A model generated the notes under the pieces. It searched no databases and had not been told where the DNA came from. It saw only the letters and a program-made list of their open reading frames with translations. A program made the position numbers and the translations under genes. From Camelus dromedarius (lineage: Eukaryota), in NCBI RefSeq assembly GCF_036321535.1, contig NC_087436.1, positions 32,242,001 through 32,306,000 on the forward strand: a DNA stretch of 64,000 nucleotides, in the 5' to 3' direction. Every line of letters begins with the position of its first letter. Positions within the stretch are counted from its first letter, which is position 1. This document shows positions 4,634 through 61,430 of the stretch, piece by piece.

Positions 4634-7011
4634 TGGGGATAATTGATTTATTATACTGTCCTTTATTGTAATTCAAAGTTTTGTTTGTTTGTTTTACAAA
4701 TTGAAGGCTTATGGCAACTCTACGTCAAGCAAGTCCATTGGCACCATTTTCAAACAGCATTGCTCACTTCATGTCTCTGTGTAACATTTTTGTAATTTTC
4801 ACAGTATTTCCAACTTCCCCATTATTATTTGTTATAGTGCCCTGTGATCAGTGATCTTTGATGCTACTATTTTTATTTTTATTCATTATTTATTTATTCA
4901 TTTATTATTTTTAATTGTTTTGGGGTGCCATGAACCACACTCATATAAGCAAACAATCAATAAATGTGTATGCTTTGACTGCTCAACCAACTGACTGTTC
5001 CCCTGTGTCTCTACCCCTTCCTGGGGCTCTGTATTCCCTGAGAAACAACAATATTGAAATTAGGCAAATTAATAACCCTATCAAGACCTCTAAGTGTCCA
5101 AATAAAAGGAAGAGTCACACATTTCTCACTTTAAATCAAAGGCTAAAAATGATTAATCTTAGTGAGGAAGGCATCTCAAAAGCAGAGATAGGCCAAAAGA
5201 TGGCCTCCTCTGCCAAACAGCCAAGTTGTGAATGCAAAGGAAAATTTCTTGAAGGAAATTCAAAGTGCTATTCCAAGTGAACACAGGAATGATAAGAAAG
5301 TGAAATTACCTTATTGCTGCTATGGAGAAAGTTTTGGTTGTCTGAACAGATGATCAAACCAGCTACAACATTCCCTTAAGCCAAAGCTTAATCCAGAACA
5401 AGGTCCTAACTCTTCTCAATTCTATGAAGGCTAAGAGAGGTGAGGAAGTTGCAGAAGAAAAGTTTGAAGCTAACAGAGGTTGGTTCATGAGGTTTACAGA
5501 AAAAAGCCTTATCTCCATAACAGAAACATGCAAGATGAAGCAGCAAGTGCTGATGTAGAGCTTCAGCAAATTATCCAGGTGCTCTAGTAAAGATAGGTGG
5601 CTTCACTAAATAGCAGATTTTCAATGTAAATGAAACATTTTTGTATTGGAAAAAGATGCCATCTGGTGAGGAGAAGTGAATGCCTGATTTCAAAACTTTA
5701 AAGAACAGGCTCACTCTCTTGTTAGGGGCTCATGCAACTGTGACTTTTAAGTTGAAGCCGATGTTCCTTTACCATCCCCAAAATCCTAGGGCTCGTAAGA
5801 GTGATTTCTGTATATACTCTACTTGTGGTCTATAAATGGAATAACAGAGTCTGGATAACAGCACATCTGTTTACAAAATGCTTTATAGTGGGTTTAAGCC
5901 CAATGTTGAGATCTATTGCTCAGAAAAAGATGTTCCTTTCAAAATATTATTCCACATTGACAATGCACCTGGTCACCCAAGAACTCTGATGGAGATGTGC
6001 AACATTTTCATGCCTAATAACACAAAGTCCATTCTGCAGCCCATTGATCAAGGAGTAATTTCAAATTTCCAGTCTTACTATTTAAGAAATACTTTTTATA
6101 AGTCTATAGCTGCCATAAATAGTGATTTTTCTGATGGATCTGGGCAAAGTTAATTTAAAGCCTTCTGGAAAAGATTCACCATTCTAGATGCCATTAAGAA
6201 CATTTATGATTCACAGGAAGAGGTCAAAACATCAACATTAGCAGGAATTTGGAAGAAGTTGATTTCAATCCTCATGGATGACTTTAAGAGGTTCAAGACT
6301 TCAGTGGAGGAAGGAACTGCAGATATGGTGGAAATAGCAAGAGAACTAGAATTAGAAGTGGAGCCTGAAGATGTGACTAAATTGCTGTAAACTCATGAAA
6401 AAAAAAACCTGAATGGATGAGGAGTTTCTTCTTATGGATGAGCAAGGAAACTGGTTTTTTGAGATGGAATCTACTCCTGGTGAAGACAACAAAAGATTTA
6501 GAATATTACATAAACTTAGTTGATAAAGCAGTGGCAGGGTCTGAGAGGACTAACTTCAATTTTAAAGGCTCTATTATGGGTAAAATACTATCAAACAGCA
6601 TTGCAAGCTACAAAGAAATTGTGAAAGGAAGAGTCAATCAATTTGGTGAACCTCACCTTTCTATTATTTTAAGAAATTGCCACAGCCACTCCAACCTTCA
6701 GCAAAAACAATCCTGATCAGTCAGCAGCCATCAACACTGAGGGAAGACTGTCCACCAGCAAAAAAAATTACAACTCGCTGAAGGCTCAGATGATAGTTAG
6801 CATCTTTTAGCAGGAAAGTATTTTTAAATTAAAGTATGTACATTTTTCTTTCAGACATAATGCTATTGCACACTTAACAGACCACAGTACAGTCTAAATG
6901 TAACTTTTATATGCACTGGGAAACCAAAAAACTCACGCGACTTGCTTTATTGTGATGTTTACTTTATTGTGCTGGTCTGGAACCAAAACTACATCTTTTA
7001 AGGTATGCCTG
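4634..7011 (+). mobile_element. Near full-length Tigger1 (pogo-like) DNA transposon with dead transposase
   Basis: Right end aggtatgcctg|TA, degenerate left end after TA at 4632-4633. Peptide remnants [30 protein letters not shown] and QPIDQGVI. Confidence 0.93.
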
Positions 7012-25899: not shown

Positions 25900-27055
25900 A
25901 ACAGTTATGATCTTCTGCTTCTGCCTGTGATGGAATAACTGATACAAGCCTACAATTCTAAATAAAAATAACCGTGAACTGATATAAAATAAGTATTTTT
26001 AGCACTGGGTAACTAGCAATGTCAAGACCTTGACCTCTGAGAGAAGAGAAATTCACAAGGTGGACTCCACAATCACCCCAGTTCTCTTTTTCAGTACAAC
26101 TTCCCACCCATGGCACAACACGCTTCAGCCCAAGCAAAGCATGGCTCTCCTGCTGAGCTGTGAAGGTAGTGCTTAGCATTCAGGGAAACTGAAGCTGTGG
26201 AATCTGTGGAGCAGAGCACTGAGGAAGAGGGAACTAATCAGAGTTGGAGGCAATACATTTGAGTAAGGGTCAGACCTCTGTGAATCCTTGGCTGAGGCTG
26301 AGCTACAAATATGGAGGATAAGACTCCCTGAAATATATCTAAAAAGGGTGCCGTAGGGTTGAGCTAAACAGATATATTAAAGATCTAATGGTGTTGGGAG
26401 ATGACAGCATACAGACCCAGCCGAGAATGGAGACCCCCTGTTAACCACTCATTAACACCCAGGGAATCCAGGTGAGACACTCTTTAAAAATTAGGCCATA
26501 CTATAAAGTAAGGCTCACATCTTATAGTAAGACCTATTCTAGATTCCCTAGCAGAGCCTAACACAAAACCTGACAAGATGTTGAGTTTGGAGGTGAAGCT
26601 TTGTCAAGTTAGAAAGGCTTCCCACAGATCCAACATGACAAACAGTAAAACAAAGCCCACAAAATTCCAAGCTGGCCAGCCAATAGAACAAAAAAATCAA
26701 TATTCCTCATAGGAAGATGACATAATCTATAATCTCTACAGTATAATATTTACAATGTCTGGTAAAAAAGGTTTTAAATTATTAGATGTGAAAAGAAACA
26801 GGAAAATATAACACATAGTTAAGAAAACGATGACAACAATAATCAACAGAAACTGTCTTCCAGATGTTTCAAATGTTGGATTTTAAGATATGAACTTTAA
26901 AGTAACTATTATATAGTTAATGTTTGATGAACTGAAAGAAAAGATGGTCTTAATGAGTGAACAAATAGGGAGTCCCAGCAGAAAAAAACTATAAAAAAAT
27001 ATAAATTGTAGAACTGAAACTTTGTACTTGGATGAGATTAAAAACAGAATGGATA
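25900..27055 (+). mobile_element. Old L1M 5' region and ORF1 start (left half of the split host)
   Basis: ORF1-like cagatgtttcaaatgttgga...aatgagtgaacaaataggg...ggatgagattaaaaacagaatgga. Confidence 0.7.
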
Positions 27056-27213
27056 GGGGGTGCCAAGATGGCGGAGCAGGATGCTCTTACCTCATCCTCT
27101 CCCGTGAATATACCAAGAAAGACATCTATGGACCTACCCATTACACTCAGAACACCTGCCAAAATTTGACAGAACATCGCCTACTTCAAAAGACAAAATT
27201 CCTCAAAAATCTG
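27056..27213 (+). mobile_element. 5' terminus of a younger L1 5' UTR (promoter, YY1 site)
   Basis: GGGGG start, then CAAGATGGCGG at 27064 (L1 YY1 motif), then ctcatcctctcccgtgaatatacc. Confidence 0.8.
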
Positions 27214-27574
27214 TAACCCTAAGAGGCAAAAGTCTAAACATTTACTTCAGAAGAAAGAAACCAACACAGGAAAAGCCAAGGATCTACAGACATCCTTACA
27301 CATGAGGATGTCTACTAGAAATCTACAGATGTCTCAAATTTCCTATCTCTACATAAAGTCAGAATCAATGTTGGGAAACCAACACTTCCACATTCTTTGA
27401 AAATAAATTAGAAAGGTCTCAAAAACATAAAATAATACTAAAATTAAATTCTGACTTAAAAGATTCCAACAGGTAACACAATAAGAGCAAGAGGTACTAA
27501 TAAAATCTTGAACTTTCATAACAGAAGGAAAGTAACTGAAATGAAGAGAAGACTGAGACTGATGAACTCAACCT

Positions 27575-27795
27575 GAGGGACGTGTTGAGAGCATGCTCAG
27601 AGTGAAGAGTCAGCAAACCTGATACTACTGGCTCCACCACTGATTGGCTGTGTTAGTTTCATAACCCTTTTCAAATTGTGTAATGCCACCTATAAAATGC
27701 GGACAAAAACTTCCTCCAGAGTTACTATAAGATTGATATAGGAACATGGAAAGCATCTTAGTACATGGTTGGCATAAAGGCTCAACCAAAAAAAC
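27575..27795 (+). mobile_element. MIR SINE (degenerate)
   Basis: gagtcagcaaacctg...ggctccaccactgattggctgtgt...ctataaaatgcgga...aaagcatcttagtacatggttggcata. Confidence 0.6.
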
Positions 27796-27807
27796 TTCAT
27801 TACTCTT

Positions 27808-28652
27808 TTTTTTAATTGAAGTATAGTTGACTTGCAATGTTGTGTTAGTTTCTGGTGTGCAGTATGGTGATTCAGTTATACATTTTTTTTCGTATTATTT
27901 TTCATTATAGGTTGTTGCAGGATGTTGAGTATGGTTCCCTGTACTATACCGTGGGACCTTGTTATTTATCAATTTTATATACAATGGCTGGTATCTGCAA
28001 TTTCTGAACTCCTAACTTGTCCCTCCACTCTCCCTGTCCCACCTGGTGACCATGGTTTTGTTTTCTGTGTCTGTGAATCTGTTTCTGTTTTGTGGATGAA
28101 TACATTTGTGTCCTTTTTTTAGATTCCACTTATGAGTGATGTCATGTGGTATTTTTCTTCTTCTGTCTGACTTGCTTCACTTAGTATGATAATCTCTAGG
28201 TCCATTTATGTTGCTGAAAATGGCATTGTTTGGTTATTTTTTTGTGGCTGAGTATATTCCACTGTATATATGCACTACATTTTCTTTATCCACTCATCTG
28301 TCAATGGACATATGGGTTGCTTCCAGGCCTTGGCTATGGTGAACGGTACTGTGGTGAACATTAGCATGCATGCATCTTTTTGAGTTGGAGTTTTCTCCAG
28401 ATACATGCCCAGAAGTGAGATTGCTGGATCATATGGTGGCTCTATTTTTGTTTTGGGGGGGAACCTCTATACTGTTTTCCATGGTGGCTGCACTGAATTG
28501 CATTCCCGCCAGCAGTGTGTGTGTGTTTGGGGGGGGGGGTTCCCTTCTCTCCACACCCTCTCCAGCATTTGTTATTTGTGGACTTTTTAGGGATGGTTAT
28601 TCAGATTGGTGTGAGGTGGTACCTAGCTGTAGTTTTGATTTGAAATGCTAAC
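27808..28652 (-). mobile_element. 5'-truncated L1 3' portion nested in the chimeric insertion
   Basis: ttttttaattgaagtatagttgac... through gatacatgcccagaagtgagattgctggatcatatgg. Short direct repeat tactctt at 27801-27807 and 28653-28659. Confidence 0.9.
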
Positions 28653-28660
28653 TACTCTTA

Positions 28661-29050
28661 ACATTCAGTTCTGGGCACGATAATTTAAGGTGGGCACTGT
28701 GACCAAATGGGCCTTATGTATGTCCAGGAGTGCAAAAGAGGTGAAAAGAGATCGAAAAATCAAACCATCTGAAAAACACTTGCAACAATCAGGCAGGTTT
28801 AACTTGGACTAGGGACAGTAAAGGAGGCAGGATGACTGAACATCTAAAAGACTCATATGGAAGCAGATTTATTTAGCAGAGCTCAAGGAAACAAAGCTTT
28901 AAAAATCACACAGTGGCAGATTCTCAGCTCTCTGTTAGAAAGAATAACATGTTCAAAAATGGAATAGATGGCTTTTGCAAGTTACTGCAAGTGCTCAAAG
29001 AGAAGAAACAAAAAAATAGGAAACACTTAAAAGGTCTTCCCCAGCTCAGT
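28661..29050 (+). mobile_element. L3/CR1 LINE fragment
   Basis: ttcagttctgggcac, ggcagattctcagctc and tgttcaaaaatggaat match L3 3' region motifs. Confidence 0.65.
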
Positions 29051-29291
29051 AAAGGCATCAGAAATGCCAATACACTTCCTTCTGATATTCTGTTCTCCAT
29101 TACAAACTTACCAAGTAGTAGCCTGATAGAGGCAAAATTAAGATAGTCTGATAATCAGATTAGACTGAGATTATTTTGTTACTGCTAAATTTAGCATTAC
29201 TAAAGAGCAGTTGAATTTCCTGTGTTCCATGGAGGCTCCTTGTGATCCTTATTGTTCAAAATCAAACATGTTTCTTTATCATATGAAAAAA

Positions 29292-31430
29292 AAAAATAGA
29301 ACGAAGATGGCAGACAAAAGTTAGTGAAAATGAAGACAGATTTGTAGACATAATCCGACCTATGAAACAGAGAATATAGATAAAAGAAAACAGAAAGAAC
29401 CTCAAGGGTCACTACTGAATGGTATAACATACATGTAATTAAAATCCCCAAATTAAAAAAAGAGTAAGATTAAGAGTACAAAGAAATAATAGCTGAAAGT
29501 TTCCCAAATTTGAAGAAAAACTCCAAATTCTCGTCCACGAATTTCAGTTATCCCTAAATTGGAAAAAGTTCAAAGAAAACCACACTGAACAGACATCATA
29601 GTAAAACTGCTGAAAATCAGCAGTTAAAGTGGAAATCTTGAAGGCAGCGGGGAAGGGTTGGGGGCGGGGGTGTGGGGTGACAGATTACATACGAAGGAAT
29701 AATACAAATGACTGACTTCTCATTAGAAACAGTAAAGTCCAGAAGACAGTGGAATATCATCCTTAAAATGTCAAAAGGAAAAACTCAACTCAGATTCTAT
29801 ACCTAGTAAAGATATCACTCAAAAATCAGGGTCAAATAAAGATATTATCAGGTAAACAAACAAAAGCTGAGATGACTTGTCAGTGGACTTACACTACAAG
29901 AAATGCTAAAACATGTTCTTTAGGCAAAGAGGGAAATAATATCATATAAAAACTGAAATTATAAAAAGGAATAAAACGGGTAAATATAGAAGACTACGGT
30001 ATTTCTTTTCACAATTTCCTTAAAAGACAATTGTTTAGTTTAAAGCAAAATAATAACATTTTAAGATGGGGTTTAGAGTATGTTTAAAAGGATATGACAA
30101 CACTAGCCCAAAAGTAATACAATTATATTTTTGTAATTATATATTATATATTTGTAAGCCAAAAAGTATTAAATTTCAGACGAGAAGTGAAAAGTGTGAA
30201 ATGATACTTATTGTCACTAAACAGATTTTAAAAAGTTAAGGAGGCATATTATAAGTCCTAGAGTAATCACTAAAAAATAAAAAAAAGTTTAAATAGGCAT
30301 AACTAAGAAGCCAAAAGAGAAAATAAAATGTAATATTATTATAGTGTTTGATAAACTCCAAGAGGTCACAAAAAAAAGATTTTAAAGGAAACAGACACAT
30401 TAAAACTAGTAAGACCTAATTATGTGATGTCTACAAGAAACCCTCCTTTAAAATAAAGGCACTAATAGGATGAAAATAAAAAGATAAAAGGAAGAAAACT
30501 GGTAATGTCAGCTTCAAGACAGGCATTACAAGAAATGATGAGTTGATTCATCAAGAATACATAACTATATATGTACATATGTATACAGCATCTCATAACA
30601 AATGCATATATATGTGTCTAACATATATTTATATATGCATTTAATAACAGAGCTACAAAATTCGTGAAACAAAAACTGACAGCTCTAAAGGAAGAAATAT
30701 AAAAGCTTGAATCATAGCTGAAGATTTTAAATCCCTCTCTGTATTTCATATAAAAAAGAAAAAAAAAGAAAAAAAGTCTACATGATATATAAGAACCACC
30801 ACCTGGTCTAATTGACATTTACAGAAAATCACACTTAAAAATTGCAGATAGTAAATTATTTCCAATGATACATAAAATTCTCCATCAATATGGACCACAT
30901 GTTGGGCCATAAAAAAGGCTCAATAAATTTCAAAAGACACATTTGCAAACATACTCTCTGACCTCAAAGGAATTAAATTAAAAATCAATAAATGAAAGGT
31001 ATCTCAAAATATCCTCAACACTGAATTGTACCTTTAAAAATGGTTAAGATAGTATGGCTATTTTACCACAATAAAAAAATTTTTAATCCCCCAAATATTT
31101 AGAAATTTTTAAAATATACTTCTAAATAATCTATAAGTCAAAGAAGAAATCACAAGGGAAATTATAAAATATTTCAAACTGAATAATAAAAACATAACAG
31201 ATCAAAATCTGTCTGATGCAGCTAAAGTAGTGCTTAGAAAAAAATTTATAGCTTTAAATGCCTATAAAAGAAAAGAAGAAAAGTTTACTAACAAATTGTA
31301 TGTTTCTACTTTAGGAAGCTAGAAAAAAAAAAAAAGAAAGAAAATTAAACCCCAAATAAATAGAAGGAAGAAATAATAAAGAACAGAAATCAATGATACA
31401 GAAAGGAAAATACTGAGAACATAAGACAGT
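29292..31430 (+). mobile_element. Old L1M ORF1-ORF2 (right half of the split host)
   Basis: Resumes ORF1 at agatggcagacaaaagttagtgaaaatgaagacaga. Later ccagaagacagtggaat, and ORF2 gaccacatgttgggccataaaa. Confidence 0.8.
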
Positions 31431-45271: not shown

Positions 45272-45371
45272 CTGAAGGAAGAAATTGGTATTTTACATAA
45301 AAACATTGTTACCAATTTTATAATAATGTTACATGTCAATGTTAAAAGTAAATATTAAGATTGTATGCTCA

Positions 45372-46020
45372 CCTACACAGCTGGTGGGAATGTAGTTTGG
45401 TGCAGCCATTACGGAAAACAGTATTGAGATTCCTCAAAAAACTAAAAATAGACTTACCATATGATCCAGCAATCCCACTTCTGGGTATATATCTGGAGGG
45501 AACTCTAAATCGAAAAGATACACGCACCCCAATGTTTACAGCAGCACTATATACAATAGGCAAAACATGAAAGCAACCAAAATGTCCACTGACAGATGAC
45601 TGGATCAAGAAGTTGTGATATATTTATACAATGGAATACTATTCAGCCATTAAAGAGAGTAAAACAATGCCATTTGCAGCAACATGGATGGACCTAGAGA
45701 TCATCATTCTAAGTGAAGTAAGCCAGAAAGAGAAAGAAAAATACCATATGATATCACTCATACGTGGAATCTAAAAAAAAAAAAGCACACCATGAACTCA
45801 TCTACAAAACAGAAAACAGATTCACAGACATAGTAAACAATCTTATGGTTATTGGGGAAAGAGGGTGGTAAGGGATAAATTTGGGAGTTTGAGAATTACA
45901 AATGTTAGCCACTATATTTAAAAATAGATTTTAAAAAGTTTCTTCTGTATATAGCACAGGGAACTATATTCAATATCTTATAATAACCTTTAATGAAAAA
46001 GAATATGAAAACAAAGAAAA
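45372..46020 (+). mobile_element. 5'-truncated younger L1 with TSD
   Basis: ORF2 C-terminus ([20 protein letters not shown]). Flanks aagattgtatgctca (45357-45371) and aatactgtatgttca (46021-46035). Confidence 0.92.
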
Positions 46021-59325: not shown

Positions 59326-59796
59326 AACAGAAAATCAAAAACTGTAAGCATTTCTAGAACAGGACAGACAAGAGATTCAATAAAATCATCAAGAATGCTG
59401 GAAATACTGGAAATACTATTTTAAGTCAGCCCTTCTGTAGCACATGAAAAATTCTCAAAATTTTAATGGGAATATATGCTATTTTATAGCAATCTGAAGA
59501 CTAGAGGACCAAGAATACCCCAGTAAGTTCAAGTCTGTGTTGGTGTTCAACCCATCCAAAGATCTAGTTAAAAACATGTGAAAACATCATTAGTAATTCT
59601 TTGAAGGGTTTCCAAGGTTAGACATTTATTTGGGTTTTACAAAATAGAAAAAAGCCACGATGCAGTCTAAGCCTTAGGCAACTACAGACTTGTTTTTGCT
59701 TTTTTCTTAAAAATTTTTAATAGACTTTACTTTTCAGAACAGTTTTAGGTTCACAGCATTAATAGAAAGTAGACTGTTTTGTAAATGAATAATTAC

Positions 59797-59941
59797 CTCT
59801 AAAATGAGATTAAGGTTTGTAGTGAGAGCCTGAACACGGTGGAAACCAGCAATCAGGGAAATAGGCAAGAAACCTTGCTCATCCATCTTTCTCCTAAGAA
59901 AGAAGTCCCGTTCCAAATTTTCTATACTGAAATAATATTCA
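59797..59941 (-). CDS. LARP1B: LARP1B coding exon, La motif core, 145 nt, phase 2-0
   Basis: ttttcag|T GAA ... TTA GAG|gtaatt. Translates [48 protein letters not shown], a La-motif signature. Confidence 0.98.
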
Positions 59942-61290
59942 CTGAAAAGAGAAATAGAGAAGTAAACAAGTTTCACCAATCTATTCGATAGGAAATAAAA
60001 ATGTCTATTGCTTATAGTATCAATTGCTATAAAACTACTTTATTAATAACATTATATACACTTAATTAAATAGGTAGTAAGGTAAATACAGTAACAGCAA
60101 AACCCTACTAAGTTAGTAATTTCTCTTCCACATAAGTAGAAAGAAATTTAGAATACCGATTATCTTTCCGAAAACTAACATTAACTTCTACCTATGTATG
60201 AAGAATTAACCAGCATTATACTTTAAAATAGTTCAATAATTAACTTTTTCAATGAGTCAATTCAGTGAAAAATTTCATTTCAAAGCTAGTTTAATTTACT
60301 TCATTTAAACACTAAATAAAAAAGCTAAACACATCTCAAAAGACTGCCTTCCAACTTTTTCCAATCACTGAGAATAATGATATACTGGAAGTATTCTTTG
60401 TCAAGTTTACAGAGTAGTTTGTTTTGCTTTCTATAGTGGCAGGGTACTGACATTGTTTAATACTTCTGAACTTTAGCAATCAGCACAATGCTTAGTAAAA
60501 ACTAAGCGTTAGTGAATACATAGGCACAGGTGTACACACACAATTTTATATTCAAATCATTCAAGATTTCCCCCTTTGATGGGCTCAACTGTAAAAGATA
60601 GTAAGAGTGAACAGAATATAGCTAAACAAAGAATATATACAACACCATGAGGTATTTACATGGCAGGGAAATACAAAAGCAACTTATACACAAAGTGTAT
60701 GACCAATAACTATAAGTTTCAAAATAAAAGATAATATGAAGAATACATTTAATAATGGCATTTGAGAAACAAGTGTTCAAATTCAGCCTGTGAATAGAAA
60801 AATGAGAACAAGATTCTAGAGAGAGAGAACAAGAGGATAAATGAGGGAAAATGCAGAAAATACAAAATATATGACATCAAATGATATGGCCTACAGTTTA
60901 ATAATCCTATACTGTTTCTAAATCACAGAGAAAGATTTCAAAGATGGGTGGCAAATTATGAGAAAGCACATCAGCTCATATATTTGGGTATAAGGCTGGA
61001 TAACTAAAGATACCCTTGAAGTATTTAGATCGAACTCTAACTTTGAACAAAAAAATCAACTATGAGTGAAAACTGGCTTTGAGCTACTTTCCACTGGGTG
61101 GGAAAAAATCTTATTTTAGAAATTTAAATACCCAAGTTGTTTCTTTATACTCTGATATTTACCCAACTATCAAAGTGCAAAGCTCCCTTAGATCAGTGAA
61201 GTACTACTGACATCTCAGTAACACTAGTAAATCATTTACTCTTCTTAAACACAGAAGAAAAAAATATAAGGCTTGAAGAATTGAACAATC

Positions 61291-61430
61291 TGATTTTTGT
61301 TACACCTCAAAAGCCCTTTTCACAGTGCCTGGCATGTGGTGGGCACATAATATGTGTGTTCTAATTTTTGTTATACTTCAAAAACCCTTTCACAGTGCCT
61401 AAAATGAGGTAGGCATATAATACATATGCT
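61291..61430 (+). repeat. Diverged ~70 bp tandem duplication
   Basis: Units begin at 61291 and 61362, both reading atttttgtta..c.tcaaaa.ccctttcacagtgcct. Confidence 0.85.

Follow-up and report, generated by a model that had tools for sequence, protein, structure and literature searches.

A putative spliced retrocopy with an L1 leader exon and an apparent record of RNA hyper-editing in a LARP1-family intron

The systems closest to the one described here are the spliced integrated retrotransposed elements (SpIREs), trans-mobilised processed pseudogenes, L1 3' transductions, chimeras of gene exons and L1, and the hyper-editing of inverted repeats by ADAR. Hybrid L1-gene transcripts are known at low levels (PMC2896524, PMC13221650), as is the splicing of such hybrids (Belancio 2006, as cited in PMC2896524). 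Truncated L1s in 3' untranslated regions (UTRs) are known editing substrates in RNA (PMC5224506), and the same paper, by Orecchini et al., describes ectopic full-length L1 RNA without editing. The element considered here lies in a 64,000-nt stretch of dromedary DNA (the ‘window’, C1:32,242,001-32,306,000). It reads as a processed retrocopy, headed by the start of an L1 5' UTR, of an RNA from one locus antisense to RCOR1, and one segment of it carries a dense, strand-specific cluster of A>G changes that appears to be a fossil of RNA editing. A first-pass annotation of the window had recognised the chimera; it overlooked the A>G cluster, the most unusual feature of the insert.

Source and structure of the insert

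Genome-wide matching was done within one 2.3-Gb assembly, in which the contig of the source is labelled C5. The 5' unique part of the insert gave three matches from three candidates (itself and two on C5), and the 3' unique part two from two (itself and C5). The second locus for the non-L1 sequence that the first-pass annotation had supposed is at C5:91,809,126-91,806,212 on the minus strand. Plus-strand exons of RCOR1 flank it (~C5:91,805,030, residues 118-146; ~C5:91,832,100, residues 283-354), so the source lies antisense within an RCOR1 intron. Pfam searches of 125 and 24 reading frames from C5 returned RCOR1 pieces only, and the gene past the CpG island at 91.884 Mb gave no identification.

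The captured DNA had been taken to be contiguous apart from a later nested L1, and neither idea survives comparison with the source. The non-L1 part consists of spliced exons: an AG precedes exon 2 at the source, and an 841-nt GC-AG gap, missing from the copy, follows it (Table 1). The ‘nested’ element (27803-28641), an antisense piece of an L1 3' end, can be aligned all the way into the source locus, and at both loci it has its own target duplication; it is therefore older than the retroposition and arrived within the RNA. As read from these alignments, the insert is a processed retrocopy of a single source, with three exons, two splices and one cleavage site. Each of the three marks of a processed retrocopy that could be looked for was found: precise intron loss from one parent, untemplated poly(A), and a target-site duplication at an L1 site. 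The reverse direction, with the window as source, is ruled out, since C5 keeps the intron and has neither target duplication nor A-tail, and since it is the window that has the derived state at the A>G sites. Membership of a non-autonomous family, also suggested in the first pass, is ruled out as well. Each unique part matches only itself and the source, with no sibling copies, and 15 of 16 exact copies of the breakpoint motif run on as L1.

The leader exon belongs to a younger L1 family, for which 40 matches were scored from 1795 candidates and 19 non-self loci were read. The insert starts GGGGG...CAAGATGGCGG at 27056, the 5' end of the family, and similarity to the L1 5' UTR stops at 27213, both as first noticed (very 5' end, loss after ~158 nt). 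Past the breakpoint, 18 of the 19 loci carry on as L1, and the next two bases are GT in 13, GC in two and other in four. The exact breakpoint motif occurs at 16 places, of which the 15 that run on as L1 have GT (11), GC (2) or other (2); the break-off is found in the window alone. Two long family members extend into ORF1- and ORF2-like sequence.

Both junctions look like splice junctions. At the first, the L1 side has CTG ahead of a GT/GC donor and the source side follows TTGCAG, with 1 nt of microhomology. At the second, the 841-nt gap begins with GC and ends with 17 of 20 pyrimidines and TAG, a tract equalled in strength by only seven sites in 29 kb. A chance fit of both junctions is unlikely, because the frequency per position on the source strand is 3.1% for YAG and 8.0% for GT/GC.

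The marks of integration are also clear. The TT/AAAA site, a 12/16 duplication and an A-tail, all reported in the first pass, are present. Agreement at the 12/16 level with either duplicate was reached by only one of 1594 16-mers of the flanking old-L1 sequence. Five As of the 11-A run (29286-29296) are part of the right duplicate, one is templated and about five lie outside both. At the source, AATGAA stands 21 nt ahead of the cleavage point, beyond which there is no A-run, so the A-tail was added to the RNA. The AATCAA named as polyadenylation signal in the first pass does stand in the copy, at 29260-29265, and the original signal is the AATGAA of the source. On these marks the insert can be taken as a product of target-primed reverse transcription (TPRT).

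The target is an older L1, and its continuity was examined with 11 homologous loci, of which the seven spanning the insertion site were used for a profile. The join scores best with exactly 16 nt removed (263.3 bits, against 249.5-256.1 for eight other registers). Taken pairwise, three of the seven loci prefer 16 nt, three prefer 0-8 and one prefers 24, which at 60-67% identity is noise. By the profile, the older L1 is continuous across the site and split by the insert, as had been claimed, and the target-site duplication is probably real. That the target is ORF1 is suggested by an ORF1-type motif in the right flank (E 0.026, weak support); Pfam gave no match to 10 short frames of the flanks.

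The Kimura two-parameter distance between copy and source is 0.143, measured at 1201 unique sites; with CpG left out it is 0.11-0.13 for exon 3, and it is 0.20 for the short exon 2. If 1.2-2.5e-9 substitutions per site per year are assumed, the retroposition would be about 23-54 Myr old. It would predate the split of Camelini and Lamini at 16.3 Ma (PMC12337305). The leader exon diverges by 0.082 from the family majority (members 0.034-0.089). This is about half the copy-source distance, so the L1 family was active around the time of the event. No coding potential is evident in the insert, the longest ATG frame being 93-95 codons, within the antisense L1 piece. There is no sign of function for the copy itself, which is most likely a one-off, inert fossil.

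The A>G cluster

In the antisense L1 fragment, 50 of the 191 As of the source are G in the copy; for the unique exon parts the count is 14 of 429 (p = 1.7e-16). Eight other L1 3' copies were used for polarisation, which left 20 differences unpolarised. Polarised in this way, 40 of 156 ancestral As became G in the lineage of the copy and 4 of 156 in that of the source (p = 1.6e-9). The complementary change is rare in the copy lineage (T>C, 9/294; p = 1.1e-12). In 100-nt bins, all eight from 27800 to 28599 show 9-47% A>G, and the eleven outside show 0-12% (highest 5/41, at 28700). The same count on eight control L1 copies gave 0-14%, against 28% in the copy, and the L1 leader exon is not enriched (1/48 As). 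The A>G excess is statistically strong.

ADAR avoids a 5' G and favours a 3' G. Once a badly aligned G-run (28519-28541) had been dropped, the neighbours of 38 edited As could be compared with those of 110 unedited ones. The edited fraction is 1/21 for As after G (5' G depletion, p = 0.015) and 23/60 for As after T (a 5' T preference). The cluster appears, from its mutation signature, to have been written by ADAR A-to-I hyper-editing of the RNA before retroposition. Clusters of A>G are the hallmark of ADAR, and G>A that of APOBEC (PMC2873906), so that APOBEC is rejected for the wrong type of substitution. Two other candidates were also set aside. A sense/antisense duplex with RCOR1 pre-mRNA would have exposed the unique exon parts to editing too, and these are scarcely changed. 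Decay of CpG at the source could mimic A>G in the copy, yet just 8 of the 38 polarised sites follow C.

A separate observation concerns the host intron as it is now. Together with the edited segment, a sense L1 3' fragment 17 kb from the insert (window 45370-46011, plus strand) makes up a new inverted pair, at which the host pre-mRNA may be edited today.

Table 1. Features of the insert, its integration marks and its target (window positions)
Feature	Position	Strand	Details
Older L1 (ORF1 region), left target part	26687..27055	+	61-67% identity to homologous old-L1 loci; colinear with right part
L1 endonuclease site TT/AAAAA	27038..27044	+	From sequence; TT at 27038-27039
Left target-site duplicate (probable)	27040..27055	+	12/16 match with 29292-29307; single-copy join best on profile
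Putative exon 1: first 158 nt of younger L1 5' UTR, ending at family splice donor	27056..27213	+	84-90% identity to 19 family copies
Putative exon 2	27214..27415	+	From C5:91,809,126-91,808,928 (minus), 82% identity; source has TTGCAG before, GC donor after
Putative exon 3 (last)	27416..29286	+	From C5:91,808,086-91,806,212 (minus), after loss of 841-nt GC-AG intron with strong pyrimidine tract
Antisense L1 3' fragment within exon 3	27803..28641	-	Brought over from source; polarised A>G sites 27834-28571
Poly(A) signal variant	29260..29265	+	AATCAA in copy, AATGAA at source
A-run, poly(A) remnant fused with right duplicate	29286..29296	+	Source past cleavage point not A-rich
Right target-site duplicate (probable)	29292..29307	+	12/16 match with left duplicate
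Older L1, right target part	29308..30280	+	58-71% identity to homologous loci; ORF1-type motif

Origin of the RNA

The best explanation of the whole, and in our judgement a highly probable one, is that an L1-initiated pre-mRNA was hyper-edited, spliced, polyadenylated and retroposed at full length. A full-length L1 of a then-active family would have started the transcript at its own 5' end. The RNA would have run antisense through the RCOR1 intron, whose location and strand are observed, from a donor in cis that has presumably been lost since, was never fixed, or lies more than 130 kb away. In the pre-mRNA, the antisense L1 3' fragment would have paired with a sense L1 3' end, either one of the fragments upstream or that of the donor itself, and ADAR, to judge by the signature, would have deaminated about a quarter of its adenosines. 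Splicing of the L1 5' UTR donor at nt 158 to a cryptic acceptor would have deleted the L1 body, and the 841-nt intron would also have been removed, steps for which the junction sequences speak. Cleavage 21 nt after AATGAA and polyadenylation would have been followed by end-to-end reverse transcription, by L1 ORF2p acting in trans, into the TT/AAAA site of the older L1 in the LARP1-family intron. The inosines would have been copied as G and then fixed. The core of this scheme, a hybrid RNA initiated at an L1 promoter, lacking the L1 body and copied full length by TPRT, had been put forward in the first-pass annotation and is upheld.

Partners for the duplex are available in cis. Two inverted L1 3' fragments lie upstream of the source on the path of the transcript, at 6.3 kb (81% identity, covering 27805-28567) and 13.6 kb (79%, covering 27808-28588), and in a cis pre-mRNA their place would be within intron 1. 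Their tip branches are 0.13, compared with 0.085 for the source branch since the split, weakly suggesting that they were already in place at the time of the event. The donor family has a 3' end of the same kind as the edited segment, seen in the element L026, and 73-78% identical to it.

Several points weigh against this explanation. The L1 5' end that the first-pass annotation looked for upstream of the source was not found: no family 5' UTR is present in C5:91,790,001-91,939,000, which takes in 130 kb upstream of the acceptor, by BLAST and by a profile, the latter of which recovered two of two positive controls. The nearest sense L1 fragments (C5:91,814,717 and C5:91,822,031) are rejected as remnants of a donor, since each has its own target duplication. 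Neither the coverage, nor the local identity, nor the end of the edited span (none of four clear As changed) discriminates between the possible duplex partners, and duplex energies were computed without a shuffled control. Editing of As before G, at 12/29, is borderline (p = 0.056). The pyrimidine tract of acceptor 1 is weak (10/20), with 450 such sites in 29 kb. The second junction has a GC donor with a non-consensus base at +5 and 3 nt of microhomology flanking the gap, and because of these it could, taken alone, be a deletion. As to RNA, the junction stretch is present, in whole or in part, in 19 of the 24 runs listed, five being on record as RNA. Four RNA runs over the junction region, with 2, 3, 5 and 10 records (20 in total), showed no joints or loose ends at a depth that is too low; these 20 records are explicable by intronic RCOR1 RNA or by DNA, so the splice sites are neither backed nor refuted by them. 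Finally, the evidence comes from one case in one genome.

A cis donor that has since been lost, or was never fixed, is the plain reading of these facts and rather likely to be right. An L1 at C5:91,895,245 was considered as the donor and rejected, as it is 5'-truncated and has no 5' UTR; motif searches of distal C5 gave no donor among the matches listed (the best 100 of 165 in one search, 65 of 65 in the other). The empty stretch upstream of the source and this result on distal C5 would also be expected if the leader had been added by trans-splicing, which we regard as unlikely but as the most serious alternative. Here, an L1 RNA, made at any place in the genome, would have used its 3' end to pair with the antisense L1 fragment of a separate RCOR1-antisense transcript, the resulting duplex would have been edited, and the tethered donor would have been spliced in trans; the same L1 RNA could supply ORF2p for retroposing the product. 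The likeness of the donor family's 3' end to the edited segment suits such a pairing, and in the work of Law and Burns (10.1101/2025.02.02.635956) trans-splicing is proposed for gene-exon/L1 chimeras at loci without an L1, though in the opposite order. Against it, the local inverted partners account fully for the edited span, and past their end none of four clearly ancestral As is changed, too few for a test. Loss, or failure to reach fixation, is common for full-length L1s in introns, and 25 Myr or more is ample for the loss of a donor. If trans-splicing were nevertheless true, antisense L1 exons would act like hooks, drawing L1 leaders and the L1 machinery to host RNAs.

Much less probable is an origin of the A>G cluster at the level of DNA, in a retrocopy spliced as described, by an error-prone polymerase such as DNA polymerase eta, by gene conversion from another L1 or by GC-biased conversion. 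Polymerase eta likewise prefers to change A to G when T or A precedes; the segment, being a repeat, has numerous candidate donors for conversion; and T>G is mildly raised in the copy lineage (7 vs 2). However, the change is on one strand only, unlike the product of GC-biased conversion, and is restricted to the segment with an inverted partner. The copy is closest to its source (0.82) and not to any of six other L1 copies (0.71-0.75). The transcription bias of a minus-strand host gene would raise T>C on this strand, not A>G. APOBEC, again, leaves the wrong substitution.

Least probable is that template switching or DNA recombination joined the L1 5' end to a transduced segment and that the 841-nt gap is a microhomology deletion: the 1 nt and 3 nt of microhomology, the non-canonical GC donor and the lack of spliced reads in the four low-depth RNA runs would suit this, but both junctions fall on donor/acceptor dinucleotides in the same orientation, the chimeras of TPRT template switching end with the L1 3' end whereas here the L1 5' end comes first, and the editing signature requires an RNA stage regardless.

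Setting and relation to known systems

The host gene is placed in the LARP1 family by a La-domain exon on the minus strand (window 59737-60039), whose best match among solved structures is LARP1; on this ground the insertion site is taken to lie in an intron of such a gene. The first-pass annotation named LARP1B. The family assignment holds, and the B paralogue is presumably the host. Similarly, of its assignment of the target to ORF1 of an old L1, the continuity of the L1 stands by the profile, and the identity as ORF1 is weakly backed.

The repeats of the window resemble those of camelids. Elsewhere in it, a relic of a Tigger/pogo-type DNA transposon, with matches to CENP-B_N, HTH_Tnp_Tc5 and DDE_1, lies at 4915-6150 (plus strand), and a tandem repeat with a 70-bp unit (1.9 copies, 82% match) at 61289-61422. 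Downstream of RCOR1, GC-rich DNA holds a stop-free frame of 496 codons (L033:784-2271, plus strand) that has no Pfam match and could be either a genuine exon or an artefact of the GC content.

The leader-exon family itself provides other unusual elements. L026/L056 (C5:46,019,428-46,021,560) is a bipartite L1, flanked by a target-site duplication, in which ~1.47 kb of 5' UTR and ORF1 start is joined to a 0.66-kb 3' end; it could be a spliced, SpIRE-like element or an internally deleted one. L018 (C37:7,845,424-7,845,579) is an isolated 156-nt 5' piece that ends 2 nt before the same donor and lies inside the 3' end of an older L1, flanked on each side by a 13-nt repeat. In L017/L051 (C2:91,875,162 onward), a long leader-family L1 enters a second, related L1 5' UTR in the same orientation just ahead of the expected 3' UTR. 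L015 (C37:54,428,272 downward) has ~570 nt of 5' UTR, a short inverted ORF2 piece, and then the end of ORF2 and a 3' part, an arrangement like that of twin priming with the 5' end kept. Identical variants of the L1 motif on many small contigs (C22, C25, C42, C67, C87, C92, C98, C112 and others) point to a large, recently amplified segmental repeat.

The steps proposed for the insert are each known separately. What is unusual is that one insertion would record where an RNA started, that it was spliced twice and edited, and how it was cleaved and reverse-transcribed. If the explanation is right, a heavily edited transcript, with ~40 inosines in 750 nt, can avoid being retained in the nucleus or degraded, be reverse-transcribed over its whole length by L1 ORF2p and become fixed in a mammalian germline. 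ADAR would then be an indirect DNA mutator of repeats, and its neighbour preferences would have stayed unchanged over tens of millions of years. A review by Knisbacher and Levanon (2015) reportedly treats retrotransposons as subjects of both DNA and RNA editing. The role of editing in retroelement evolution was called undetermined by Goodier (2016; PMC4982230). The present case offers a genome-wide test of whether RNA editing feeds such evolution, by way of strand-specific A>G in those segments of retrocopies that have inverted partners. A literature search found no ADAR-edited retrocopy fixed in DNA; most subscription papers lay outside it, so a prior report is possible.

The insert resembles SpIREs in that an RNA beginning at the L1 5' end, with an early 5' UTR donor (G98U99 in human, nt 158/159 here), was retroposed, but the acceptors of SpIREs are internal to L1, in the 5' UTR or ORF1, and the body is kept (Larson et al. 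2018, PMC5860796), whereas here the acceptor is unique C5 sequence and there is no sense L1 body. Of the features that define a SpIRE, the donor in the L1 5' UTR is thus shared, and the acceptor within the same L1 and the retained body are not. The insert would represent a SpIRE-type 5' UTR donor in a non-primate L1 family, used for exon capture. With trans-mobilised processed pseudogenes it shares the loss of introns, poly(A), the target-site duplication, the TT/AAAA site and a single parent; unlike them, its parent would be a cryptic antisense intronic transcript with an L1 first exon rather than an mRNA, and it has a hyper-edited segment.

Orphan transductions are products of 5' truncation, in which the L1 5' end is missing. 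As in L1 3' transduction generally, read-through from an L1 promoter to a downstream genomic poly(A) site appears to have moved flanking DNA; in contrast, the L1 5' end is kept here and the body and 3' end are spliced out, and the source L1 that should stand directly upstream is absent from the 130 kb upstream of the acceptor in the present genome, though it may have been lost since the event. The gene-exon/L1 chimeras of Law and Burns (10.1101/2025.02.02.635956) are likewise flanked by target-site duplications, have splice sites at the L1/non-L1 junction and often come from gene loci with no L1, but in them the host exons are 5' and the L1 3', and the pipeline screens 5' of L1; the order is reversed here. 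In ADAR hyper-editing of inverted repeats, as in this insert, A>G clusters on the RNA strand stay within a repeat that has an inverted partner close by, and a 5' G is avoided. Such editing is normally in RNA only, whereas here it would be fixed in genomic DNA. The chimeric retrocopy alone would be a modest addition to the known kinds, and the frozen hyper-editing is the surprising part.

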